NCBI GenBank assembly: GCA_965112155.1
Contig: OZ218100.1
Strand: one strand, 5' to 3'
DNA length: 64,000 bases
From: Podarcis liolepis
Taxonomy: Eukaryota
The notes under the pieces were generated by a model. The model did no database searches. It worked only from the letters and a program-made list of their open reading frames with translations, and was not told the origin of the DNA. The position numbers and the translations under genes are program-made. This document shows positions 3,411 through 64,000 of this stretch, in pieces (position 1 is the stretch's first letter; every line of letters starts with the position of its first letter).

Positions 3411-3972
3411 AGTATAATTCTAATGCCAGAGAGACTTAAAGTTGTTATGTTCTTTGCAGTCAGACTGCATAACACTTCACCCCAGGTAAAAAGTTTGATC
3501 AGATTAGAGTTTAAAATAAACTGACAGAAACCTTAAAATGCTTTTTTGCTTGTAAATGCCCTCGTATAGGCTGAGGAATTACTATTAGAATAGACAGTTC
3601 ATTCTCTGTGATGTACTGGACAGGTTATGACACAGAAAGGGGATAAAGAATATTATTCTGCAGTTGGTGTTCATGTATATTTACTTTATGGGCCCTCTAC
3701 CTGAACTCTGGTTTTTCTTGTTTACAACCCTCAAAAGGTATATTGTCATTTGACAATACAGCTCATTGGCATTTATATAGAGCAAGATACCCTTAAAGGA
3801 AGAGATTGAACAGTGTGATAACAGGACACAACAGAAACACCCATTCTGTGAAAGAAAAGGCATAATTTTACCTCACTTGGAGCTTTCCCTTGCTGTTATT
3901 CAGAACACTGAACAATTGCTCACTTCAGTTCCTTCCATATGAAGGTTGATACCTAAAATACATCATCTAGAG

Positions 3973-4809
3973 CAGTGTTTCCCAACCTTTTTTGGGCAAA
4001 GGCACACTTGTTTCATGAAAAAAATCTTGAGGCACACCACCATGCCAGATGGGGAAAGGTCACTTTTTACTTATGCAAATAAAAAATAAAAAAATAGTAA
4101 CAGCATAGAAGGTAATGGTTAGGCTAGCATCCCTCTTCCAAATATGCTAGGTTTTTATTTGCAGGGACTGTTCTACATGGGAAAGCATTCAGCACTGTCA
4201 TTCTCCCATCTGCAATCTGAATTGGTACTATTCTGGGTCAACTTACTCTGCTGCATGTGTAGATGAAAATGGCACCAAGTGTGGGGGAGGGGGCAGAACA
4301 GGTTTCAGATACAGGATATTAAGCATACACGTACTTCAGATTGAACTGGTTGCTTGCTTTGCAAGTTTTCATTTCCCAAATGACTGCCTTGGCAAGCGCA
4401 ATACCTACCAGGCTCAACGCCGGTCTCGCGCTGCCGCTTCCCGCGCTCTCAAGGACCCGGGAGGAGGAAGGCGTGAAGGGAATCCCGAAGGCGTGAAAAC
4501 CTCGCGCATGCGCAGGCCTTCCGCCTGCGACAGCCCAGTAGGCCGGCCGAAGCGAGCAGCAATGGGATGTGGGAGGGAGGGAGCTCGCCGCCCCGCGTGT
4601 GCCTATGTGGGGCACGTTACAGCCCCGTGACGTCAGCGCCACGCAGGCAGCCAGGCAGGCAGACGGCGAGAGCCCCGCGCTGGGCGGCCTCTCCTCGCCG
4701 CCGCCGCCCCGCCTCTCGCCGCCCGACTCGCCCGCCTCCCTCCCACGGCACACCAGGCAACGTCTTGCGGCACACTAGTGTGCCGCGGAACACTGGTTGG
4801 GAAACACTG
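3973..4809. mobile_element. Non-autonomous hAT (Charlie-like) DNA transposon with CpG-rich interior
   Basis: Perfect 15-bp TIRs cagtgtttcccaacc/ggttgggaaacactg; 8-bp TSD atctagag at 3965-3972 and 4810-4817. Confidence 0.92.
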
Positions 4810-5589
4810 ATCTAGAGTTCTGTCGCTACAATTACCTTTTCCAGACTTAAAGTGATAACAATATGGCATGAAAGGAAACTCAGTGGTCAGAGGAAGATCA
4901 GTTTAGTCACTGATAAGGAATGGAAGCAGACCCAGTGCACTATGAAAGGTTCCTTCAGTTACTTTCCACCATCTCCACAGCACACTCTAGTTATTCTTGC
5001 TTACTTCCTGAGATATATGGGGCTCAACAGGGAAAGGAGTAATCTGTGATTATTTGGTCCTTACTTCCTGTCAAGTAATACTCTTGGATCTCCAACCCTC
5101 ACCTCAGCATCACAAAAGCAGCTGCTTTTTTAAAGTGATTGCCTTTCCTTCTGGAAGATGGGAAGAGATGCAATGGGGATGGGGGGTGGTTCTGTGTCCT
5201 CCTTTGCCAGAAAGCCATTGTGTATTCTGATCTGTTGAAAGAAAAACAGCTCAGCTTTCACTGTGAACAAAACTAGCCTTTCTGTGCTCAAGATTCTACA
5301 GCAACTGACAACAGAAAATCAGATTGTAAATTTTATTTTGGACAGTCTAGACTTCTAGCTGAATTAAAATAGTGTTTGGTGCTTCCAGAGTTCAGCTGAA
5401 CAAAAGTAAAGAAGCAGAAAAGTTTAAAATGAAAAGGTTCCAGTACTCTTTATCAGTGAGCACAGTCACAAAAAGTACTGGGTTTAAGTATTTGGATAAG
5501 CTCTCATGTGAGTGAGAAAAAGTGAGGGAAAGAACTTGAAACTTCCTGTGCAGGGTAAAGAAAGACAATGAGTAGTTGCAGCAAGCATT

Positions 5590-9187: not shown

Positions 9188-9379
9188 GCTTTGATTTAGT
9201 GAAATGTGAGGATTCCGGAACACCAAACTATGGCTACAAGATTCGCGATGAAGGCCATTACACAGATACGGTTGTTTTGTACAGTTGCAATCCAGGCTAC
9301 ACAATGCATGGTAGCAGCACTATTACCTGCCTAAGTGGAGATCGAAGAGTTTGGGACAAGCCTTTGCCGACTTGTACAG
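9188..9379 (+). CDS. CSMD1: CSMD1 exon, Sushi/CCP domain (FDLVKCEDSGTPNYG...WDKPLPTCT)
   Basis: Acceptor tttatag at 9187, donor gtaatg at 9380; 192 nt, phase 1-1; matches recalled human CSMD1 FDLVKCEDPGIPNYGYRIRDEGHFTDTVVLYSCNPGY. Confidence 0.96.
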
Positions 9380-9814
9380 GTAATGTTAGATAACACGGTA
9401 ATCTAAAAGTTTGTTAAACGCTTCATAGCTCTCTTTATGGATAATGCATTATTACATATGAGATAACGATGCTTTGAAATGGTATATAATCTATCTCAGG
9501 TTTCCCCCAACCACCACCATATACATATATTGAAACTAAATATGTGGGCCATCTCTGAGGAAATCTGCTACTACTCTCCCTGAAATTCTTTTGGCTTTTC
9601 TTGAAATTCATCTGGTATGCTTTTACCTTGATTTCTGAAGGACATTTGATGCAGCCTAGGAATGAATGGACTACAGACTACAATAAATTTTGACGTCCCT
9701 ATCAAAACTCTTTCAGTTACAGATAGGTAGCCGTGTTGGTCTACCATAGTCAAAAAAAAAAAAAAAAAAAAATCCTTCCAGTAGCACCTTAAAGACCAAC
9801 TAAGTTAGTTCTTG

Positions 9815-9852
9815 GTATGAGCTTTCGTGTGCATGCACACTTCTTCAGATAC
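9815..9852 (-). ncRNA. Minimal type I hammerhead ribozyme motif (identical antisense copy)
   Basis: Exact reverse complement of 9989-10026. Confidence 0.75.
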
Positions 9853-9988
9853 ACTGAAACAGAAGTTGCCAGATCCTTCTATATAGTGAGAAGGTGGGGA
9901 GGGGTATTACTCAGAAGGGTATTCCCACCACCCTTCTGAGTAATACCCTTCTCACTATATAGAAGGATCTGGCAACTTCTGTTTCAGT

Positions 9989-10026
9989 GTATCTGAAGAA
10001 GTGTGCATGCACACGAAAGCTCATAC
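9989..10026 (+). ncRNA. Minimal type I hammerhead ribozyme motif
   Basis: GUAU-CUGAAGA-A-GUGUGC(AU)GCACAC-GAAA-GC-UC^AUAC: core boxes, stem II, stem I (GUAU/AUAC) and palindromic AGCU mini stem III. Confidence 0.75.
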
Positions 10027-10283
10027 CAAGAACTAACTTAGTTGGTCTTTAAGGTGCTACTGGAAGGAAAACTCTTTCAGTTTTCTTCACATTTCTTACC
10101 CAATGAGAAATCTCCAGATTCACCTCATGTTTTGCCTTGAAGCAAAATTCTGTGGTAATTCTTACTAAAAAGAGTGCTCGTTCTCTGTGAGGTCTCCATG
10201 AATTATTTTGTCCTATCTGGTGTTGTCTATACTGACCCCCTGCAAAATTGGTGGCAAATTTGGGTCCATAGCTAGAAGATTGT

Positions 10284-11103: not shown

Positions 11104-12269
11104 TGTCTTTCTTTTGAGGTGGGCTTTTGAGGCTGATAGCTAAAACAAACACTGAGAGACATATAGTTGGGTTGAATAAGTGACACTTTTATTTATATAA
11201 ATCCAAACCTGCAGAGCAAAACTACTGGTATGGGAAGTGCTTATGTTTATGGGGCTTGTGCAGCTATAAGGGTGACCAAACCCCTACCAGGCCAGAAGCA
11301 AGCATATTTGCCTAGCCCTAACTCCAGTACAGGTGAGGCTGTGGGTTAAACCACAGAGCTTAGGACTTGCTGATCAGAAGGTCAGCAGTTCGAATCCCCG
11401 TGATGGGTTGAGCTCCCGTTGCTCGGTCCCTGCTCCTGCCAACCTAGCAGTTCAAAAGCACATCAAACTGCAAGTAGATAAATAGGTACCGCTCTGGCGG
11501 GAAGGTAAACGGCATTTCCGTGCGCTGCTCTGGTTCGCCAGAAGCGGCTTAGTCATGCTGGCCACATGACCCAGAAGCTATATGCCGGCTCCCTTGGCCA
11601 ATAAAGCGAGATGAGCGCCGCAACCCCAGAGTCGGTCACGACTGGACCTAATGGTCAGGGGTCCCTTTACCTTTACCTAACTCCAGCCACACCTTGAAGG
11701 TAAGTAGAGAGACCTGCCCACCCCCACCCCCTTAGGGGTCTACAAGGTTGAAGAAACCTGCTCTCACGTTCAGGCCTTAAGCACTGACAGTCATCCCCAA
11801 GGGTCACTAACAAGCTATCCTAACATGCTCTGCTTCCTATACCTTCCTGCAAAAGTGACATGATTAACCTGTTTAAAAGGGGTAACAGTGCAGGAGCCAA
11901 ATTAACCTGGGCCTAATGGCTGAGTGGACAGACACCATGGCTAATCAACTTCCTTTCCCAGCCCTACAGCATGGAGAAGGTGAGAAAACCCACTTGCCAA
12001 ACCAGACAACTGAGTCAGAAATTCCCCTGTGGCCCAGAAGTGACCACTGAAAGCCAAACTGCAAAAAAGGGAGGGAGGATGCCCTCAAGCAGAGGTTGAG
12101 GAGGAGGGGTGGGCTTAAATGAGCCCCCCATAGCCACACCTAACATGCTGGTGCATTGCACGTCACGTGTATGTGAACACCAGAATCCAAAATGGCGCCT
12201 TTGGCACCAGCTGCAAACTTGCCCCATCACCCAGAGTAGGCTTGGGCAGTGGAACTGAGATTATGGACA
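11104..12269 (-). mobile_element. Candidate LTR-like element interrupted by a Sauria SINE; left boundary uncertain
   Basis: Minus-strand start tgtccataat...cctactctgggtgatgggg resembles the start at 49775 (tgtctgtataat...cccattctgggtgggtgg); minus-strand AATAAA near 11190; no TSD found. Confidence 0.35.
11328..11675 (+). mobile_element. Sauria SINE, near full length
   Basis: tRNA-like head (B box gttcgaatccc), ACCTTT tail; 11-bp TSD cctaactccag at 11317-11327 and 11676-11686. Confidence 0.95.
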
Positions 12270-13346
12270 CTTGGAATTCTTTTCCAGGTCTAATGCAAGA
12301 CAGCTTTGCCAGAGTTCCCACTGACAACAAAAGGTTCTATTTAAGAGGGTGGGAACAGACATGTATAATGCATAAATTCATTTCTTTGTCATCACGTGTT
12401 CCGTTCAATTCTAATCTTTCCTGCTTTAAGCACATTGTACACATTAAGTGGCATTCTTTGATTCTCCACCCCCGCCCTTTCTCTCTCTTTAATTGAAAGT
12501 CTGGTATGATCTGTGTCTGAACAAAGGGAAGTGGCTGAGTAGATACATTCTTTGCAGAATTCTCTGTCTGGGAAAATATCTTTTCAATCTCATGTAAGAG
12601 AACCATCAAACCTGGAAACATGAAACTAATTTGAGTACCCTTATGTGTTTCATCTGTGCTCTTAGCTGTTTCAAGCTCCTCACTTACACATGACATAAAG
12701 ATTGTGTCATCTTGACTTGCCAGTTACGAAAACTCTGGATTCTGACTGAGCAAGATGTGAACTAGCTTGTCTTATGTTGCTATCAAAAGGTATATGTGCA
12801 ACACGTTAAAAAGTGAGAAGAAAAACATTTCCATCAAGGTAAAGAAAAGGTTACTCTTATTTTCCAGCCGTATGGCTACAACCCATGCAAATGCTGTGGG
12901 CTATTCGTGGAGTGTATTTTGCTCATCCATGCGAGAAGCATATTGTCAGGAGGACGAGTGCTAGATAGCACATATCTGAATGCTAACACTTTAGGTTAAT
13001 TCCATAGGACAGTGCTCACAGGGAAGCTCGAATTATAACTTCTTAAAAGTATAACAAGAAAATATTGTTCACACTACCTGAGCTGGTTCTGGGTTACTCA
13101 GATACTGCCTTATCATCAATTGATGTACCTTTGCTTGTAAAAAAAAATAAAAATCCCTTTTGGTTCTCTGAGGCTTAAATCCTAAGGTTTTTATTTATTT
13201 ATTTTTTTGAAGGGGGGACAAACCATAGGTGGTTTTCCCAGTTATTCACTGCCCTGCCAGACAGCTGCCAGCAGTCAGAACTGTGGGTGGAATAATGTCT
13301 TTGTACTTCTCTATCCTTCCTCTGGTTTTAAAAAACTAACTATACC

Positions 13347-14019
13347 ACGAAGATCATGGCCTCTGGTCCCATCACCTCCTGGCAAATAGAAGGGGAAGAA
13401 ATGGAGGCAGTGAGAGATTTTACTTTATTGGGCTCCATGATCACTGCAGATGGTGACAGCAGCAACAAAATTAAAAGACGCCTGCTTCTTGGGAGAAAAG
13501 CGATGACAAACCTAGACAGCATCTTAAAAAGCAGAGACATCACCTTGCCAACAAAGGTCCGTATAGTTAAAGCTATGGTTTTCCCAGTAGTGATGGATGG
13601 AAGTGAGAGCTGGCCCATAAAGAAGGCTTATCGCTGAAGAATTGATGCTTTTGAATTATGGTGCTGGAGGAGACTCTTGAGAGTCCCATGGACTGCAAGA
13701 AGATCAAACCTCTCCATTCTTAAGGAAATCAGCCCTGAGTGCTCACTGGAAAGACAGGTCCTAAAGCTGAGGCTCCAATACTTTGGCCACCTCATGAGAA
13801 GAGAAGACTCCCTGGGAAAGACCCTGATGTTGGGAAAGATGGAGGACACAAGGAGAAGGGGGCAACAGAGGACGAGGTGGTTGGACAGTGTTCTCGATGC
13901 TACCAGCATGAGTTTGACCAAACTGCGGGAGGCAGTGGAAGACAGGAGTGCCTGGCGTGCTCTGGTCCATGGGGTCACAAAGAGTCGGACATGACTAAAC
14001 GACTAAACAACAACAACAA
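13347..14019 (+). mobile_element. Bov-B (RTE-clade) LINE, 5'-truncated 3' end
   Basis: MASGPITSWQIEGEEMEAVRDFTLLGS...IKRRLLLGRKAMTNLDSILKSRDITLPTKV...RVPWTARRSN...WRALVHGVTKSRT is the characteristic Bov-B ORF C-terminus; in-frame TGA at 13635; (CAA)n tail. Confidence 0.96.
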
Positions 14020-14712: not shown

Positions 14713-14982
14713 GCGGGGTGGCACTGTGGTCTAAACCACTGAGCTTTTGGGGCTTGCTGATCAGAAGGTCGGCGGTTCAAATCCCCACGATGGGGTGAGC
14801 TCCTGTTTCTCTGTCCAAGCTCCTGCCAACCTAGCAGTTTGAAAGCATACCAGTGCAAGTAGATAAATAGGTACCGCTGCAGGGGTAAGGTCAACGGCGT
14901 TTCCGTGCGTTCTGGTTTCTGTCACAGTGTTCTGTTCTGCCAGAAGTGGTTTAGTCATTCTGGTCAGGGGTCCTTTACCTTT
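14713..14982 (+). mobile_element. Sauria SINE, variant subfamily with internal 3' deletion
   Basis: Head and core match other copies; sequence jumps from ttagtcat to tggtcagggg and the tail. Confidence 0.9.
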
Positions 14983-21882: not shown

Positions 21883-22543
21883 GTTATTTCTTTTTGTGAA
21901 GCAGGCTTTATTGATTAATAATCAATAACACAATTGTTCTTGAAGTTCACACATCTAGAGAATTACAATAGATCTGCAGTTATATTGTTGAAGCACACAT
22001 TTTACATAGGAGGGGCAAAGCTGGTGATTTCTGCTCATGCAGTGGGATTTCCCCTTCCTCTCTCCCCCCTTTAGCCCCTCAACAATCTCTCAAGCTCTCT
22101 CTGGAAATAGATTTTGAGGGCATGGGGAAAGGCTTCAAGAGGAGGGGGAGGAGAGGAGTGGAAGCCTGTTCTGTTCATGTACTCCACCATTAGATATAAC
22201 CCAGAGCTTGCTGATGGGAAAGATGCCAGGCCATAGGAACAGCCTCTCTCCCCTGTATTCTGAGGAGTCTAGTTTAGGAAATTAATGCTTGACCATAATT
22301 TTCTTAGCCATTTTGAGAGTTGCACCATGTTATTGAAATGAATGAACTACTGCCTACTTCAGTGGAAAGGAAGTAGTGGCGGAAGGAGCGGGAAGCTGGC
22401 TGGAAAGGAAAATTATATTAAATTTTTAAAAATAACCTCAATCAATCATTTTATTCGCATGCTGCCTTTACAAAGTTAAAACCATGCTCAAGGCAGCTCA
22501 CAACATATAAAAAATATACATAACTGCAAACATAACAGAAGTA

Positions 22544-22897
22544 AGGTAAGGTAAAGGGACCCCTGACTGTTAGGTCCAGTCGTGGCCGACTCTGGGGTTG
22601 CGGCACTCATCTCGCTTTATTGGTCAAGGGAGCTGGCGTACAGCTTCTGGGTCATGTGGCCAGCATGACTAAGCCGCTTCTGGCGAACCAGAGCAGCACA
22701 CAGAAACACCGTTTACCTTCCTGCTGGAGCGGTACCTATTTATCTACTTGCACTTTGACGTGCTTTTGAACTGCTAAGTTGGCAGGAGCAGGGACCGAGC
22801 AACGGGAGCTCACCCCGTCGCGGGGATTCGAACTGCCGACCTTCTGATCAGCAAGTCCTAGGCTCTGTGGTTTAACCCACAGCATCACCCGCGTCGT
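22544..22897 (-). mobile_element. Sauria SINE, full length
   Basis: 12-bp TSD ataacagaagta (22532-22543, 22898-22909). Confidence 0.96.
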
Positions 22898-26824: not shown

Positions 26825-26942
26825 CAGGTAGGTAGCCATGTTGGTCTGACACAGTCGAAATAAATTAAAAAAATGTCCAGTAGCACTTTAGAGACCAACT
26901 AAGTTTGTTCTGGGTATAAGCTTTCGTGTGCATTCAGATACC
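26825..26942 (-). mobile_element. Second Penelope-like terminal fragment with a broken hammerhead
   Basis: Aligns with 9720-9852; 10-nt deletion within the ribozyme motif. Confidence 0.8.
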
Positions 26943-29231: not shown

Positions 29232-31265
29232 TAGGTTCTCTTTAAGGTTTTAATCTAAGATACCACTGCATTCTGATATTCAAACTGGGTCATTCAGGGT
29301 GGTGTAACACTTAATGCAGCAGACGTGGTTGTGGTGGCTTAGACTGAAAATAGATTACTTTTTGTGTCCTTAAACACTTGGGCCCATTTGTTAATCTTCT
29401 GTGGCCTGGATCGAGATAAACTTTCACCACTGTTTGTAATGTAATTGTTCCCGTGCGCTATAACATTAGTGTATGTGCCATGTGGTACTGCCCAAACAGA
29501 TGACTAGCTGGAAAAAAACCAGCAATGTTCTGCCTTTGCATGGTATTCCAAATCATCTACCCCTACTATGCATCCTGAATAGGATGAGTTCAACCTTGGA
29601 CCATTTTCCGTGAGAAACATACTTCACAGTTTTGCTGGGTAGTTTGAAAAAGCAGGAGCTTTGTCATGGTGAACTGTTGGAAATTCACTTTATGACCCCT
29701 AGGAGCAGCAATTTGGTTTGCCTTAATCACAGAAGTGGCTTGTCAGGTGGGGTGGAGTCACTGTACCTGCTTACTGGGAAAGGGAGGAACCTGGCATCAG
29801 GGAGGTCAACGCGGTGCAAAAGCACTAGCGGAGCCAATCCAGCAGTCCTGCTGGTTTGTTTACACCATGCTGACCTCTCTGTTCCTTTGCCCCTCCAAGC
29901 AGCAGCCTCCCCCCATTGCCACTGAAATGCTAACATAGCAGCCCCCTTCTACTTAATCTGGAGTGCGAACTAAATTTTCCGTTGTAGAAATGAAGAGGAA
30001 AGGCCAGACTTGCTAGTGTATCAGAAAGAAGTAATACTTAGAGCCAAATAGATGTGAAGTCAGTGGTGCGAATGTAATTAACACTCACAATACTGTTACT
30101 TAAATAGCAGCCAAAGGAAAGCCACAGGACTGTGGGCCTGGAGACAGAATATATTCTTTCTCTTTCTGTCATTACTCTCTGAAGCTGCTATTTGCATTTC
30201 AAGGGGGAAAGCCATTGGAGCCAATGGAAGCAATGTCATCTCTAGTTCGACCTTTAGACAAGGGATGTAAAGCCGACTGATTAGCCTATTTGGTTTTCCT
30301 TTGTTTGTTGTTTGTTTTTGATGCAAATAGTTCATTTAGGAGAGTCATTATGGCGAAGTACCATAAGTGTATTTTACTAAGAAGGATGACCTTGAGGATT
30401 ATGTAGTTTAAAATGTTCATTATACTAAACATAGCAGTACTTCAAGCCTCAGAGGTTCTATAAAGGCAGAATAAAATAGAGCATTTAAAATACTCACAAA
30501 GTATTACTCTTGTATACTAGGGTAGCTGAGATTTAATAGCTCTTCTTTTTAGCATTCTGACTGTTGTCAAACAGACATTCATGTTTGTTTAATTCTTTTT
30601 CTTCACTTTTTTGCTGCGTTCACATTTTATAACTTATCTGAGAGCAGCTCTGTATTTTACCTCAGGCTGAGTCATCAGAAGATGTGGAAAATTTTGAGTC
30701 TTCACTAGAGTAATAACTTACAAAAGAGCTATTTTGTTAGCGTGATCTATTTTTAAACAAAATAGCCGCCTGGACTGATTACTATTGTTACTACAATGAG
30801 AATTATAGGTGTTCAGTACCACTGTTAACAAGACCCCTAATTTTAAGTGCATGATTGCAGATTTAGTTGCCTACCTGCCAGCACAGAATTGTTTTTTTTT
30901 CCTGTTAGTGTCTGCCTGGATACTTGGATTGGGAAACATCTTTTTTTAATCAAGTAAAGTGATTTTATTGGCTTTCTTTTGTCTAAAGAAAGATAGACGA
31001 GAATATAGACAAATCCTCAATTTTGAATGTTTCTTTATGCAGAAGCTCTGCAATGCTGAAGGAATTTGTTAGAGGAATAGCCAGACACATTATTAATACC
31101 TTCTCAGGAGGCCTTCCTTCCATAGGATTGTGTGACTATGGTTTGGGGTTGTTTTGCACTTACCCAAAATATAACGTTTTCATTCCTGGAACCCAAATTA
31201 TGGAATTCACTTCCCAGAGAAGAATTCCTAGTTAGAACAGGATGCAATTTTAAATAAATCTTGAA

Positions 31266-31617
31266 TAAAGGTAAAGGTACCCCTGCCCGTATGGGCCAGT
31301 CTTGACAGACTCTAGGGTTGTGCACTCATCTCACTCTAGAGGCCGGGAGCCAGCGCTGTCCGCAGACACTTCCGGGTCACGTGGCCAGCATGATGAAGCT
31401 ACTCTGGCGAGCCAGAGCTGCACACGGAAACGCCGTTTACCTTCCCGCTAGTAAGCGGTCCCTATTTATCTACTTGCACCCGGGGGTACTTTCGAACTGC
31501 TAGGTTGGCAGGCGCTGGGACCGAGCAACGGGAGCGCACCCTGCCACGGGGATTCGAACCGCCGACCATGCGATCGGCAAGTCCTAGGCGCTGAGGTTTT
31601 CCCCACAGTGCCACCCG
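31266..31617 (-). mobile_element. Sauria SINE, distinct subfamily
   Basis: Same architecture and ACCTTT tail, with many diagnostic differences in the 3' part. Confidence 0.92.
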
Positions 31618-32683
31618 TACTTGTCACACTTCAAAGGAAAGGCCTTAACACTTTGTCATACTTTGACCTATTTAATAAGCAAAATCTCTCCTTTCATACG
31701 TCTTTGCTACCCCAACCCCTGCTCCTGATACGTGACATATTTTACAGATGTTCCTTTTCTCTTCCATCAGGTTTTAGGAACCTGGATGTGAAATGACTAT
31801 GTTGCTGCTTCTGTCTTACCTTATCTTTCTCCTATTATTTTGCAGCTGATTTATTAATGCTTTGTTGTTATTTGCTTTGTTGTGTTTCATTTCTACAGTA
31901 TTAGAATGGCAGATTTTGGCAGCAGTCCTGCGCACAGTTCCTCTGTAGCTGTGGAGAGAGAAAGGCAGTGTTTGCAATCCTCCCCAGTGTTGAGGATGCT
32001 GCCTTTTACTCTTTATCTCTAAATAGCAGACATAGCTCATTATCTCCTAATTTTAGCAGGGTGGTGGTCAGCGCTAGGATTGGGAAATGAAGCCCTCTGG
32101 CTGACCTTTAGGTAGTGATCTCTACTGAACAAGCAGAGGGCTTTATCTCTCAATTGAAGTCCTGAGAACCACAGTACTGAGGGGGGGGGTAAAGCTGTGG
32201 GGGCTGGCCACTTCCTGTGGCTCGGTGGGCCATAGCCAGCCTATGGTTTGTGGGTTGGCTACCCCTCTTGTATCAGAATAAGGTGGTAGCTGCTTCATAC
32301 ATGCAGAGAGCATTTAACTTCTTTAAAAACACACACACACACACAAAAACCCTTCTAACAGTGTGTACCTTGCAAAACCTAGTCCAATAGTGGACTAGGC
32401 TAGAATTTTTGTCCCTGTTATGCTGTTTCGATTTGCACATGGTGTACATATCTGGGGGAAGGGAAGGGTAATATTGGATAGTGATATACTGTATGCACAT
32501 AGTACATGCATGCGTACGTAAACACGTTGCAAACACACACAGTCCTATATGTGCTTAGTTCTTCTTGCTCTTGGATTATTGAATAGCCATTAGCTAAAAA
32601 GTAAGATGCTAGAAAGGAATAATTAAATGTATAAGGTCTCAAGTTACTTTGACAATTGCCAGTGCTTAGTGTGACCATTGTGA

Positions 32684-40545: not shown

Positions 40546-40874
40546 CAGTAGTGCCCCGGAAGATGAATGCCTCACAAGACAGAAAACTCGCTAGACGAAA
40601 GAGTTTTCCGTTTTGGAGGTGCTTTGCAAAACGAATTTCCTATGGGCTTGCTTCGCAATGTCTTGTGAGTTCCTGCTGTTTTTTTTTTCCTTTCCCCCCC
40701 TTTTTCTAAGCCGCTAAGCCGCTTATCAGCTGATCCGATCAGCAGATAAGCCGCTAAAAGCCGCTAATAGCGCTAATCCGCTAATCCTTCAATGGGCTTG
40801 CTTCGCAAGACGAAAAAACCGCTAGACGAAGAGAATCACAGAACGGATTCTTTTCGTCTTGCGAGGCACCACTG
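40546..40874. mobile_element. Tc1/mariner-type MITE
   Basis: TA TSD; TIRs cagtagtgccccggaagatgaa/ttcgtcttgcgaggcaccactg; related to 63182-63531. Confidence 0.88.
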
Positions 40875-41262
40875 TACTCTTACTACCCCAGCAGAGCCCC
40901 AAGCATATCTTAACTAAACAGATTATATATGGAAGCATTTTATACTTAGACCCAAGACACAGACTCCTACTCCCCTTGTCTTCTCTTGGAATAACAGAAA
41001 GCCTGCTGCAGGTCTGTATTTATTCCAGTTAATAAATTTGTTCATTGTTCAACCTGCTACAGTAAGGGTCAACAAACAACAGAGGACACACACCCCTTCC
41101 ATTCCCCAGATGTGCAAACCACATTCCTTTCCAGAGTTCAAGGCACTCCATCCTCTGTGATAGCTTTAAGGCCAAAGACATGGATGAGCTTAGTTCCTTT
41201 CCCCTTTGCCCTGAAGCAATCATGGGCATCTATCCTAAGTTGTTCCCTTTAGCCTAACTCTC

Positions 41263-50488: not shown

Positions 50489-50841
50489 GGGACGCAGGTG
50501 GCGCTGTGGGTTAAACCACAGAGCCTAGGACTTGCCGATCAGAAGGTTGGCGGTTCAAATCCCCGCGATGGGGTGAGCTCCCGTTGATTGGTCCCTGCTC
50601 CTGCCAACCTAGCAGTTCGAAAGCACTTCAAAGTGCAAGTAGATAAATAGGTACCACTCCAGCGGGAAGGTAAACGGCGTTTCCATGCGCTGCTCTGGTT
50701 CGCCATAAGCGGCTTAGTCATGCTGGCCACATGACCCGGAAGCTGTATGCTGGCTCCCTCGTCCAATAAAGCGAGATGAGTGCCACAACCCCAGAGTCAG
50801 CCACGACTGGACCCTAATGGTCAGGGGTCCCTTTACCCTTT
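50489..50841 (+). mobile_element. Sauria SINE, full length
   Basis: gggacgcaggtggcgctgtggg head through ggtcccttta tail. Confidence 0.95.
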
Positions 50842-52566
50842 TTAAACATAGCATGCTATAGAATGAAAGGATACATTAGTTAATTGGATTTTTAAAAATC
50901 TTCTTGTTGTTATTGTTGCTGCTGTTGCTGTTATTTGTTAAATTTCTAAACCACCCTTCTTCCCAAAGGAGCCCAGGGTGGCAAACACCAAAACAGTAAA
51001 ACAATACTGTTAAAAATAAAATAAAGAAATCAGGTTTTTAGCAGACCAATGTTTCTTCCAAACCAGTAGTAAACAATGGGTTTTCACATGGAAAGCAGCA
51101 GAGCACCCCCCCAAAAAAAACCCCCCGCCCAGACCCATTACTTGAAATTGAGGGACAAATAGAAGTTTGGATGGGACATTAATCTAGGCAGATTTTTTTA
51201 GACTCAGCTAGTTTGACTTCTGCGTCATGTGGTGTCAAACATAAGATTTGTGGGCCTCATCAGGTCACTTTAGAGGGTTCCAGTGTGACCCACAGCTAAC
51301 CTACCATTCTTCATACACGTCGTTCTGTTTTCTGTGCTAGAAATCCACTAATTCACTCTTTGCTGTTGTGTTCCAGCTACAAATGCTTAAGGATAGACAT
51401 ATTGCCACAGCTGTAAGAACTGTATTTCAGCTTCCCCAATTTATGGTGGAATTGATGGCTTGGTGTTGAGTTCAAGTAGAACTAACATTTTTCAGTGGAA
51501 AATTATTGGCTTTGCCTCAGATGTCTACACTGGGTGGGAATTTTCCATCCAACTCATTTGAGTTTGACACCACTGGATTGGGCTAATAAATTGTTCCTAT
51601 AAGTTCTATATCCATGAGAAATGTTTATTTTAACTGAAGTGTGTGTGTGTGTTATGTGCTTGACATAAATAAAATTCCCCCTTTAGAGATATGAATGGGG
51701 GGAGTGGGTGGAAGGGGGTGGATGGCCAAACTAACAAAAAAAAGAAATAGATTTTGTTGCAATTTAAAAATAAGCTTATTTTTAAAAAACCAAAACCAAA
51801 ACGGAATTCTCTTTTCCCTTGATACCGAGGAGATACAATTTCACAGTAGGTAAATGCAGTTTTGTCAATGAGGGAATTAACTAAATTTGATCAGATAACA
51901 CATTTCAGTGATTCATTGTCTCACTCAGCTAACCCCACTGTGCATCATGGGAAGCACTGCATTACTCTTTGACTGAGGGTGGATTTTTGTTGACTTTAGA
52001 CCTGGAATAAAGTATGAGATAATGTGTCTACAACATTATAGTTCCCAACAGATAACAGTACACTTGGTTACTGTGTTTTTCTTTCCTGCCAGCTCTAGAG
52101 GGTATAAACGAGAGATGGATAAAAGACTGGTGCATTGGAGCATTTAAATAAGAAATCACTGAGCATTCAGAATTATTAGTGTCCTGAGATGGCAATTACA
52201 ATAAAAGCCTATTTGAGTTTTATACAGGAGACATATTTACGACATTAAAGTATGAGTTACAAAGTGCTTTCCCCCACTCACCTTGTGGTCAAATAGACAT
52301 GTAATTTCTTTGCATCATAGTACTGCTGATGAATTCTCTGACATTTCCCCATACATAATACTTTTAAATCTCATTAAATTTGCTGAGAAAACCTATGGCT
52401 GGACTAATATTTTAATAGTTAATAAGGAGATAACCGTTAGAAGTAAATATTTCTACTAAATGAAGATTTAGTATTTATTACTTCTCAAAGGAAATGGATA
52501 TTTTTATCATTATGTTACAAAGAAACAGTATGAACATTTATAGTAATAGAAAAAGCAATGCCAGTA

Positions 52567-52934: not shown

Positions 52935-53276
52935 GTGGGTGGCACTGTGGGTTAAACCACAGAGCCTAGGAGTTGCCGATCAGAAGTTCGGCGGTTCGAA
53001 TCCCCGCAACGGGGTAAGCTCCCGTTGCTTGGTCCCTGCTCCTGCCAACCTAGCAGTTCGAAAGCACATCAAAGTGCAAGTAGATAAATAGGTCCAGTGG
53101 GAAGGTAAACGGCATTTCCGTGCACTGCTCTGGTTTGCCAGAAGCGGCTTAGTCATGCTGGCCACATGACCCGGAAGTTGTACGCTGGCTCCCTCGGCCA
53201 ATAAAGTGAGATGAGCCCCGCAACCCCAGAGTCGGCCACGACTGGACTTCATGGTCAGGGGTCCCTTTACCTTTAC
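52935..53276 (+). mobile_element. Sauria SINE, near full length
   Basis: Matches the other copies; ACCTTT tail. Confidence 0.95.
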
Positions 53277-56389: not shown

Positions 56390-58445
56390 TATGTATGGTC
56401 TCAGTAGCACTATATATATATATATTTGTCTCAAATAGTCATGGGGAATTCAGTATATTTTTAAGTGCCTTTGTAATTGATTCATGGCGTGTTTTGCAAT
56501 CTTAGCTATTTTCTTTTCATTCACAAGGTGTGTTATTTATTGTCATGATTGTCTTCAGAGATTAGATTAGGCACCTATAGGGTACACAGTACCATGCAAC
56601 CTGATGTCTTAACCCATGTGCTGAACTCCTCATGTTCAGCATTCATATGCCAGTGATTTACAGAACAACCCAAAACCTCTTTGGGCAGTGGTGGTGGTGG
56701 TGGAGGACATAGATGTCCCTCTGTCCAGCCCTGCAAGGCTAACTTCGCCACCTGCTAGCTACCACCCTCATTGTTACATTCTGGTGACGATCCCCACCTT
56801 CTACCTGTCAAACAAATGGGTGTGGGGTGGAGTTTCCACTGTTAATATCACCTCTGCTGCCGTTGTGTGATTCCTCTTAGCTTGAACTCTTGAAGCCAAT
56901 TTTCATGAGCATTGGAGGCTACAGGAACTGGGAGGGATTGGCCAAAATCTCCTTCCTTCCTCTTCCATTAGTGAAGTCAATCACTGGATCACAAATTCCT
57001 TCTGTGATCAGAAGAAGTAACTGAATTCCATCCTACAAGACCTGCCCCCAAATAAGGTGTATGGGATTGCAGCAATCATGATTTCGAATGCTTTGGACAG
57101 CATCCAATGTTTTTCTGTTTAAATGAAGGCACCCCCACTAGAGTTGTGCTATTGAAAGGGGTCACTGTAGGAGGGGAAGTCATTGGATTTGACCCTATGT
57201 GTTTTTTTGTCTTCTGCTACTTATAAAAATATAGTTCCAGATTCAAAGATTGGGGGTGGGTAGCATTTCATTATCATGTAACAAATTGTTCAGCAGTGTT
57301 GTATTGTTTGCTAGTTTGGGGAGGGAGGGGTAGTGTTTATGTTTATTCATCACTGGCATTAGGATATAGGATTACTGTGTCTAGTGGCATTTGAGAATAG
57401 GAAATGCTATTCTCAGCATCTCGGAATGAATCAAGTAAGTAAGCCTGCTTTATTTATCTCTGGAGAACCTTGCAGCTAGTCAAGTTTCCATTTTTGGAAG
57501 ATGAATGCATTAGGATCCCTAGCTGCTAAAGCTTTAGCCAGGGCCATGCGGCTTGTGGCATTTAATTAGATTTAATAAATATGCTACCACAATTTGGGGA
57601 TTTTCAATCTTCTTGTGAAATATAGGAACAGATTTCCCAGGACTGCCTGCCTGCTAATGTTAAGATACCTCTGAGAGCAGCATCCCCATTCCTGAATGAA
57701 CACTCTAATCTGGCCTGCAAAGTCAATCATTTTATTTATCACCCAGTATTCCAGATTGACCCTATTACATGTTTGCTTTTCCACTAGGCTGATTTCTATT
57801 TTGTTTCATAGCACTAAAAGATGAATAATAATTACTACAGAAAATGCAATTTCTCTCTGATACCATCTAAGAAGACTAACTTGTCAACATTATGGTTTAG
57901 AATTAGACTGAGGATTAGGAGGGAGAGGTGCCCATAGCTAGCCTGATTGTATATTCTGTTCACAGCTAGTGAAATATTAGATTTCAAGCTTTGGATTTTG
58001 ATATAATGGCCCTTCCTCCCCCCTCCCCACAAACTAATGCCATTTTCTCTACATATTTCTTTTTGTCTCCAGTAAACTGCCCTCCTTTTTGTGATGACTC
58101 ACATTTCTTTATATTTCATACTTCACAAAAAGCAGGGTGATTAGCTGTTACATGAATGAGCGGAACCTCTACAAAAAAATCCTCAAAGAAGACTGTTGAC
58201 ATTTTATAATGTTAACTACCCTCACATTTTCAGTACAATTGGGTTTTAAAGGGAGTCATTTGCTCTCATTTCCATAATTATGCCATGCTGGCTTATTTCC
58301 TATAGCTCTCTGAAACACCCAGTGCTGGCCCAAGACATTAGCCCTTGCAAAGCCTATATGGTTTACTCTAGCAAGAATGAACTCACATTCTACCATTTCA
58401 GGGCCTTTCCACAAATGCAGTTTGTTTGCTTGTTCATTTGTTGTA

Positions 58446-62916: not shown

Positions 62917-63181
62917 TTGTTCCTTTTATCAAAGCATTATTTTATACATAGTTAAATAAAGCAATATCACCATCTGCTGACAGCTAGAGAAACAACTAAC
63001 GAGGGCATCCAAGTGCATTCGGTTAATTTAACACCATAAATAAGATGGAAATAAAATCCAGCTGTGGGGTACTGATTAGAAGTGGATATCAGCTATGTGT
63101 GGAGGCCAAAAAACGAGGCAGATGGAAGTGCCAATATCCCCTCACCCTCAAGTCAGATCAGGGCCTCCCAAAAGTCTTGTA

Positions 63182-63531
63182 CAGTGGTATCCCGCAAGAC
63201 GAACGCCTCGGAAGACGAAAAACTCGCTAGACAAAGGAGTTTTTCATTTTCTTAGCCGCTTCGCAAGAAGCATTTCCCTATGGGCTTGCTTCGCAAAACG
63301 AAGCTTGCTGGGCAAGCAACAGGGAGATTGCTGGGCAGGCAACAGGGAGAAGCAATCTTCTCCCCGCCACCCCTTGCTTTAAACAGGTCCGGGGACAGAG
63401 GGGAAGGCGCGCGGCGCTTCCCCTCTGTCCCTGGACGGTCTCCATAGGAACGCATTGATTGATTGATTGAAAAACTCGCAAGAAGAAAAAACTTGCGGAA
63501 CGAATTAATTTTGTCTTGCGAGGCACCACTG
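63182..63531. mobile_element. Tc1/mariner-type MITE
   Basis: TA TSD; TIRs cagtggtatcccgcaagacgaa/ttgtcttgcgaggcaccactg; shares arms with 40546-40874. Confidence 0.88.
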
Positions 63532-64000
63532 TATTGTTCTTTTTTTATTATTACTTGTTTAAGACGGAGCATACACTTGAACAACATGAAAGAAAGAAAG
63601 AGAAAATTGAATTAAAATCAAAATTAAGCATGTTCTGTTTTTAATTCATTTTTCTATTCAGAATAACTCCAAGTTTTTGTATATCTGTTTCTCTAGGGAA
63701 GCTGGCTTTGCAAGAAGTGAGGTTGTCCCACATGTTGTCAGTAAAGCACCAAAGAGCTCTGGACTGGGTTTTTGTTGTTGTTAAAACCCGGCAGTACAGG
63801 ATTTTATTTTTATTTTTTAAACCCTCGAAGTCATAAAAAACCCAGAGCTGTTCAGAACTTCACTGGCAATGTTCTGGACAACCTCATATTGTAAAGCCTC
63901 TTGGAGACCTGTAAAACTTATATTGGAAGCATAAAGTCTATCTCAGAGGATACAAACAAACTCTGGAAAGGTTTTTAAAATGTACAAACAAGAATAAATA

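Follow-up and report, generated by a model that had tools for sequence, protein, structure and literature searches.

The window analysed here, a 64-kb stretch of DNA, carries exons of a CSMD gene; on the + strand, exons for Sushi domains take turns with exons for CUB domains between 9188 and about 62 kb. At 3973–4809 it also contains an element of 837 bp that is delimited by perfect TIRs and a TSD. The two TIRs (3973–3987 and 4795–4809), which start with CAGTG, are identical at 15 out of 15 positions, and the two copies of the TSD (3965–3972 and 4810–4817) at 8 out of 8. The following features were assigned, with published elements used here and below as far as the accessible parts of the cited papers describe them:

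3965–3972, no strand: 8-bp TSD, low-coordinate side, of the NTCTAGAN or nnnTAnnn type (PMC3014272 Table 1; consensus in PMC3499496)
3973–3987, + strand: 15-bp TIR, presumed right (3') end, then a T-run; polarity by analogy with AnBT and OC1_Das
3988–4043, + strand: right subterminal module with the T-run and two direct 7-bp repeats
4044–4408, − strand: AT-rich, CpG-depleted interior, putative intron start and/or 3' UTR or filler, with a donor at 4246 and a sense AATAAA at 4159
4403–4411, − strand: splice donor 1, first intron base 4408
4409–4503, − strand: putative non-coding exon 1 with presumed start site; the stretch from the NRF1 motif to the donor lacks an ATG
4504–4744, − strand: CpG-rich promoter-like block with an NRF1-type site (4504–4513), an ETS-type site (4518), a CRE (4628–4635) and GC boxes (4588, 4682, 4704, 4719)
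4745–4794, − strand: left subterminal module with a 20-bp dyad (4767–4786), in which the 7-bp subterminal motif recurs
4795–4809, − strand: 15-bp TIR, presumed left (5') end
4810–4817, no strand: 8-bp TSD, high-coordinate side
9188–9380, + strand: nearest host exon, at a distance of about 4.4 kb, coding for a Sushi domain of the CSMD gene

Ahead of the exon at 9188–9380 there is an acceptor, and the sequence further upstream showed no CUB/Sushi frame. Therefore the element is intronic, and the promoter-like cassette on its minus strand lies antisense to the CSMD gene, as the original prediction had it. Going by the exon sequences, we take the host paralogue to be CSMD1 rather than CSMD2 or CSMD3; a check of its identity confirmed only a Sushi domain. 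The Sauria-SINE-like and Bov-B-like repeats of the window suggest that the host is a lizard, presumably of the lacertid type.

Class of the element and other repeats of the window

A scan of the 64-kb window for TIRs with TSDs yielded 11 rows, one for the element and ten nested ones from a single foldback at 9.8–10.0 kb, and this leaves the element as the window's sole TIR-plus-TSD element of the hAT kind. No second copy was detected within the window by blastn, nor were TIRs beyond the two known ones when up to two mismatches were allowed. The 8-bp TSD and the short TIRs with a YARNG terminus, the latter a criterion for hAT TIRs (PMC3014272), are those of the hAT superfamily. The TSD agrees with the NTCTAGAN type of the Anolis Charlie-like hATs (PMC3014272) and with the nnnTAnnn consensus of TcBuster (PMC3499496), and the junction codons of two related copies, P0001 and P0002, which are described below, are also compatible with a TA-centred target. 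By eye, the element further shares with Buster/Charlie elements TIRs of 14–16 bp starting with CAG and asymmetric subterminal ends. On these sequence features it is likely to be a hAT transposon of the Buster/Charlie type, and the earlier call of a hAT element with perfect TIRs and TSD stands. The two direct 7-bp repeats of the right subterminal module start at 4001 and 4031, 30 nt apart, and are likely candidates for transposase-binding sites.

With its 837 bp and without a transposase ORF (BED, DDE and dimerisation domains) the element is non-autonomous. Scanning 25 of its 26 frames of at least 20 aa in Pfam gave three sub-threshold matches, none to a transposase. Within the collections covered, no autonomous partner or cognate transposase was found; GTDB scans with either end, aimed at host-derived contigs, returned 0 and 0 matches; plasmid blastn gave no match, and over the whole window Rfam at gathering thresholds and ARAGORN gave 0 matches each. 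Folding of 4400–4809 resulted in a z-score of −2.3, which may simply reflect short inverted repeats and the dyad at the terminus. Inside the element there is also a 12-bp perfect inverted repeat (4073–4085 and 4152–4163, 66 nt apart). It is the source of an AATAAA on either strand, and an octamer-like word overlaps with it. A match of 4255–4296 to 58016–58056 (43 bp, 81%) was dropped because its 31.9 bits were beaten by 3 out of 40 reversed-sequence controls.

Several other repeats are present in the window. The foldback mentioned above (9773–10068) consists of perfectly complementary 122-bp arms (9773–9894 and 9947–10068) around a rearranged centre of 52 bp; one arm resembles 26825–26936 at 80–90%, and the whole looks like two inverted copies of a presumably Penelope-like element that were paired very recently. 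Seven SINE copies of about 350 bp (2699–2909, 11330–11682, 14716–14966, 22540–22895, 31258–31621, 50491–50849 and 52937–53276), which we assume to be Sauria/Squam1-like, belong to at least two subfamilies, with about 90% within and about 79% between them. From its translated frames, the region at about 13330–14000 is taken to be the 3' fragment of an RTE/Bov-B-like LINE; it had no Pfam match. TA-flanked MITEs of the Tc1/mariner kind, presumably Tigger-like, are located at 40546–40876, at 63181–63533 and from about 37179, and their CpG o/e is 0.94–1.16. The first two share termini (79%) and have different interiors, and the one at 37 kb has ETS and NRF1-like words.

The CpG-rich block and its exon-like layout

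The original prediction had placed the most CpG-dense block of the window at 4400–4790, and this proved to be right: 4401–4800 holds 48 CpG per 400 bp, the window maximum, against 26 in the best independent block elsewhere. The block 4400–4790 has 391 bp, 71% GC and a CpG o/e of 0.98, and the CpG-rich part starts 66 nt from the presumed 5' terminus (4809). A CpG island according to Gardiner-Garden and Frommer is longer than 200 bp, with a GC content above 50% and an o/e above 0.6, and a stricter rule sets the length at 500 bp. With the thresholds as they are commonly quoted, the block exceeds all of the former values and stays below the 500 bp of the latter. A CpG o/e near 1 is not special in itself. 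As the three Tc1/mariner-like MITEs of the window show it as well, it marks young repeats generally.

Motifs within 4400–4790 were evaluated against 5000 dinucleotide shuffles of this block; it should be noted that they were chosen after the fact. The CRE at 4628–4635 (P = 0.0026) and the NRF1-type 10-mer at 4504–4513 (P = 0.0028) each occur once in 64 kb, and none of the 5000 shuffles contained both. Weaker values were obtained for the four GC-box hexamers at 4588, 4682, 4704 and 4719 (P = 0.036) and for the ETS-type site at 4518 (P = 0.21). Five out of ten patterns tested are missing from the block, namely the extended GC box, E-box, CCAAT, YY1 and TATA. NRF1, ETS, CRE and GC box are to be understood as the names that we assume for the motifs in 4504–4744. 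All three kinds of site that had been named before, CRE, NRF1-type and GC box, could thus be located, the GC boxes without their extended form.

The minus strand has two splice donors, with first intron bases at 4408 and 4246 as predicted, and the + strand has none. This pair is borderline, since at least two donors per strand were found in 5.1% of 3000 shuffles (P = 0.051) and at least one is expected with P = 0.30. On the far side of the first donor, 4044–4408 contains 2 CpG where 15.7 are expected, and its o/e of 0.13 is host-like (window median 0.20). The sense AATAAA at 4159 is located 186 nt from the presumed 3' terminus. The proposed order of promoter, non-coding exon 1, donor and intron is supported in this arrangement, each unit being putative and read from the sequence. 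The element also has long open frames of 112–159 aa, which are by-products of its GC richness.

Related copies, age and methylation

The long open frames of the element served as probes for other copies in protein-level searches. They matched 1 out of 100, 1 out of 638 and 1 out of 81 candidates, with two matches among 1.84 billion representatives, one of these being spurious. The real matches are two Logan ORFs, P0001 and P0002, which come from related TIR-bearing copies. The spurious one, P0003, is a repeat-protein match (27 bits pairwise) and was dropped, and the single match of the minus frame in the ESM Atlas, at 0.75, is uninformative. None of the three long frames matched a named gene or predicted protein, a result of low power for a protein-level search of non-coding DNA.

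P0002 is 93% identical over 126 aa. It lacks about 4681–4775, that is three GC boxes and half of the dyad, and retains the CRE, the NRF1 site, an intact donor at 4408 and the downstream sequence to at least 4322. It reads through the TIR at 4809 out of a flank that is unrelated to the window, and hence comes from an independent locus. P0001, with 91% identity over 66 aa, lacks about 4604–4701 including the CRE and retains the TIR and the NRF1 region. Both deletions show microhomologies of 2–3 nt. Since each of the two copies lacks a different part of the cassette and the flank of P0002 differs, the cassette belongs to a multi-copy family and, judged from these two records, is dispensable for at least some copies.

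P0001 departs from the window sequence at about 4413, which is some 4 nt inside the putative exon and not exactly at the donor. Residues 1–40 of this record, which are joined to the cassette at that point, are absent from the window and may stem from a host exon, from the 5' UTR of an autonomous element or from a genomic flank. An exact splice at 4408 was rejected, as it needs two adjacent non-CpG changes, of which at most one is seen in 231 codons. The break is suggestive of donor use; a small indel combined with splicing and a genomic breakpoint are both possible.

The window copy differs from P0001/P0002 by 13 amino acids over 231 aligned codons, and 10 of these differences are single CpG transitions. 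These transitions occupy nine sites, one of them at a deletion junction, with five CpGs lost in the window copy and four in the others; the remaining three differences cluster in slippage at 4580–4586. The CpG-type share would be expected at 10–22%, and the probability of at least 9 out of 10 is at most 8e-6. CpG-type differences amount to about 0.10 per visible position compared with an upper bound of 0.008–0.012 at other sites. The CpG rate is therefore in excess by at least 8–13-fold, and non-CpG divergence is at or below about 1%, both figures being derived from the two protein-level records.

From this mutation pattern, which concerns germline history and not the somatic state, the family appears to be very young and germline-methylated. 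The original prediction had left youth or hypomethylation as reasons for the undecayed CpGs. Because 10 of 13 differences are CpG transitions and five distinct CpGs were lost in the window copy, youth is retained and hypomethylation is disfavoured as the cause of CpG survival. A germline-unmethylated CpG island would be free of CpG-biased decay, and by this indirect measure such decay is evident here. The window copy itself is likely to be methylated and mostly silent. Binding of NRF1, CREB and GABPA is methylation-sensitive.

Origin of the cassette and comparison with known systems

The ends of the element give it a polarity. In AnBT (PMC12637253 Table S3) and OC1_Das (PMC3621081 file S1) the 5' end is a TIR with a dyad and the 3' end a TIR with a T-run, which in AnBT is accompanied by two direct repeats about 30 nt apart. 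In the window the 4809 end has the TIR and the 20-bp dyad, and the 3973 end the TIR, the T-run and two repeats at a distance of 30 nt. From this asymmetry, compared by eye with two published elements that are not close relatives, we infer that the 4809 end is the 5' end and the minus strand the sense of the element. The cassette would then sit and point where a transposase promoter does, and promoter, exon, donor and AATAAA are all oriented as a transposase transcript would be. Random capture would place a cassette at the 5' end in sense orientation about one time in four.

A natural counterpart is found in OC1_Das, whose ORF (565–2370) codes for a transposase of 602 aa (PMC3621081). According to the sequence given there, the region between left TIR and ORF contains three ETS-type sites, an NRF1-like core, two CRE half-sites and a GT donor, followed by an AT-rich stretch and an AG just before the ATG at 565. 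A count by eye gave the first 480 nt about 26 CpG, compared with about 20 for the 1.8-kb ORF. By analogy, a CpG-rich head on a CpG-poor body can also be native. Furthermore, most non-autonomous hAT families of Anolis are deletion derivatives of autonomous ones (PMC3014272). The best reading, to which we assign a probability of roughly 55%, is therefore an internal-deletion MITE that keeps the promoter, the non-coding exon 1 and the start of a 5'-UTR intron of its parent. Between the two origins originally offered, Pack-type capture and a retained transposase promoter, end polarity and the parallel to OC1_Das thus tip the evidence towards the latter. Against it count the host-like CpG o/e of 0.13 in 4044–4408, which fits a captured intron, the uptake of foreign DNA by lizard hATs, the fact that eight Anolis families share only their TIRs with any autonomous element (PMC3014272), and the negative outcome of the searches for an autonomous partner and for a transposase-like frame.

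The CpG depletion and the uptake of DNA also lend some weight to a multicopy Pack-TIR. In this case a host gene of the housekeeping or zinc-finger kind would have supplied its CpG-island promoter, non-coding exon 1 and the first part of intron 1 (about 4044–4744), captured as one piece and spread by transposition. An NRF1 site adjoining an ETS site, together with a CRE and GC boxes, is the classic set of vertebrate housekeeping promoters, and the CpG content falls sharply at the donor. A precedent exists in the frog, where hAT-N8_XT took 291 bp of the CAPSL 5' UTR to three chromosomes (PMC8277862), and Anolis hATs incorporate genomic DNA. Position and orientation of the cassette nevertheless fit a native promoter, OC1_Das has the same motif kit natively, and multicopy cases were only 4 (1.4%) of the Pack-TIRs catalogued from 100 animal genomes (PMC8277862), so that we regard such a capture as possible and clearly the less probable origin. 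That the three long frames had no named match says little here, as the search was at the protein level on non-coding DNA. In its boldest form, to which we give rather little credence, the whole front end of a host housekeeping gene (CpG-island promoter, exon 1 and donor) was captured by a young lizard hAT family and is being sown genome-wide as a portable promoter-exon that is spliced to host sequence in its flanks, with P0001 as a chimeric transcript. Native and captured origins are not fully exclusive, since the promoter of the autonomous parent may itself be an earlier acquisition from a host.

The break in P0001 bears on a mosaic structure as well, in which the CpG block, native or captured, forms one module and filler of unrelated, AT-rich sequence was attached to it near 4410. 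The order of exon and intron would then be a by-product of this junction, and the donor incidental. In P0001 the shared part of the block ends at about 4413 and gives way to sequence that the window lacks, donors are near their chance frequency, and recombination between elements is common in Anolis hATs. Yet P0002, from a different locus, keeps the donor and the sequence behind it to at least 4322, and the break in P0001 may equally reflect splicing of an RNA whose source copy had a small indel where the exon ends; a mosaic of this kind appears doubtful. Still far less probable is an insertion that is unmethylated, active and selected as an antisense promoter regulating the CSMD gene. The NRF1, CRE and ETS sites and the donor are indeed intact here, whereas P0001 and P0002 each lost part of the block. 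But with five distinct CpG losses and non-CpG divergence of at most about 1% the copy is too young for constraint and has been methylated, and it is oriented away from the nearest exon, far inside an intron.

Under the preferred reading of a retained transposon 5' end, the following course can be envisaged. In the parent, NRF1, ETS, CRE and Sp1 sites would have started transcription near 4500 on the minus strand, and, if the layout of OC1_Das is a guide, the donor at 4408 would have been spliced to an acceptor ahead of the transposase ATG; this promoter segment may itself come from host recruitment long ago, since OC1 swaps the region between lineages. Interrupted gap repair may have removed the transposase ORF and spared at least some 400 bp at the 5' end, after which a Buster/Charlie transposase acting in trans would have moved the element into a TA-centred 8-bp target in the CSMD intron. 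The result would be a latent TATA-less promoter firing toward lower coordinates. New copies would become methylated, their CpGs decaying at least 8–13 times faster than other sites, and methylation of the sensitive motifs would silence them. Any antisense RNA would be weak and, if unspliced, would likely end early at the internal poly(A) signal at 4159. Germline methylation, the methylation-sensitive motifs and this poly(A) signal argue against antisense transcription of the CSMD gene, antisense activity at the locus is predicted to be likely low, and an effect on the CSMD gene, although possible, is hypothetical and unsupported. Rather than a working antisense promoter, the element is probably a young transposon copy of an ordinary kind.

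In the likely case of an ordinary young MITE, vertebrate Charlie/Buster elements appear to bring their own CpG-island-like promoter, non-coding exon and donor, and host-gene capture should not be the default reading for reptile MITE interiors that resemble promoters. The family would also provide a natural series for timing the methylation-driven decay of a mobile CpG island. Should capture together with chimeric splicing be true, the family would count among the rare multicopy Pack-TIRs, with a regulatory module in place of coding sequence as its cargo, and would offer a testable route by which the promoters of DNA transposons turn over. The same process would then explain the swapped lineage-specific 5' regions of autonomous Charlie elements such as OC1; DNA transposons would recruit promoters much as L1 replaces its 5' UTR. 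In the literature covered (Repbase, Dfam and most subscription papers lay outside its scope) we found no description of this element family or of a promoter in lizard hAT MITEs.

Among known systems, the Anolis Charlie-like families hAT-HT3N1/N3_AC, hAT-N3_AC and SPIN_NA1_AC (PMC3014272 Table 1) have a TSD of the same type and the CAGTG terminus, and with 600–830 bp they are in a size range akin to that of our element. By eye, and for the TIRs only, the match is 14/15 to hAT-N3_AC and SPIN_NA1_AC and 12/14 to hAT-HT3, with no Anolis family listed there being identical; the words promoter and CpG have 0 occurrences in that paper. Buster elements such as AnBT and TcBuster (PMC12637253, PMC3499496) likewise have TIRs of 14–16 bp, the nnnTAnnn TSD and asymmetric ends, with 12/15 TIR positions shared by TcBuster as judged by eye. 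Unlike our element they are autonomous and 2.5–3 kb long, and the 5' end of AnBT (about 400 of 500 nt) is AT-rich and not CpG-island-like. The ends of hAT2_NA, a MITE of Manduca sexta (PMC3845634 Table 1), which were the part compared, are identical in the TIR at 14/14 positions and come with an 8-bp TSD; this MITE, however, is from an insect and only 277 bp long, and its authors found no autonomous partner either. Pack-hAT-N8_XT with the CAPSL 5' UTR (PMC8277862) resembles our element in having hAT ends around an interior like a gene 5' end at several loci. Multicopy Pack-TIRs are defined by a known host parental locus, and the element described here is known without one. A parallel in layout is offered by OC1_Das/OposCharlie1 (PMC3621081), with the same arrangement of dyad and T-run at its ends, a 5' subterminal region that is rich in CpG from about position 66 on and contains ETS, NRF1-like and CRE-half motifs and a GT donor, and a CpG-poor body, although its TIR belongs to a different family and it encodes a transposase. 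Its positions 66–565 may be read as a promoter region with a donor and a pre-ATG acceptor, even if PMC3621081 uses neither the word promoter nor intron. According to its authors, positions 66–447 are unique among the OC1 elements, so the 5' region turns over between lineages, and this variability hints at promoter swapping in Charlie elements.
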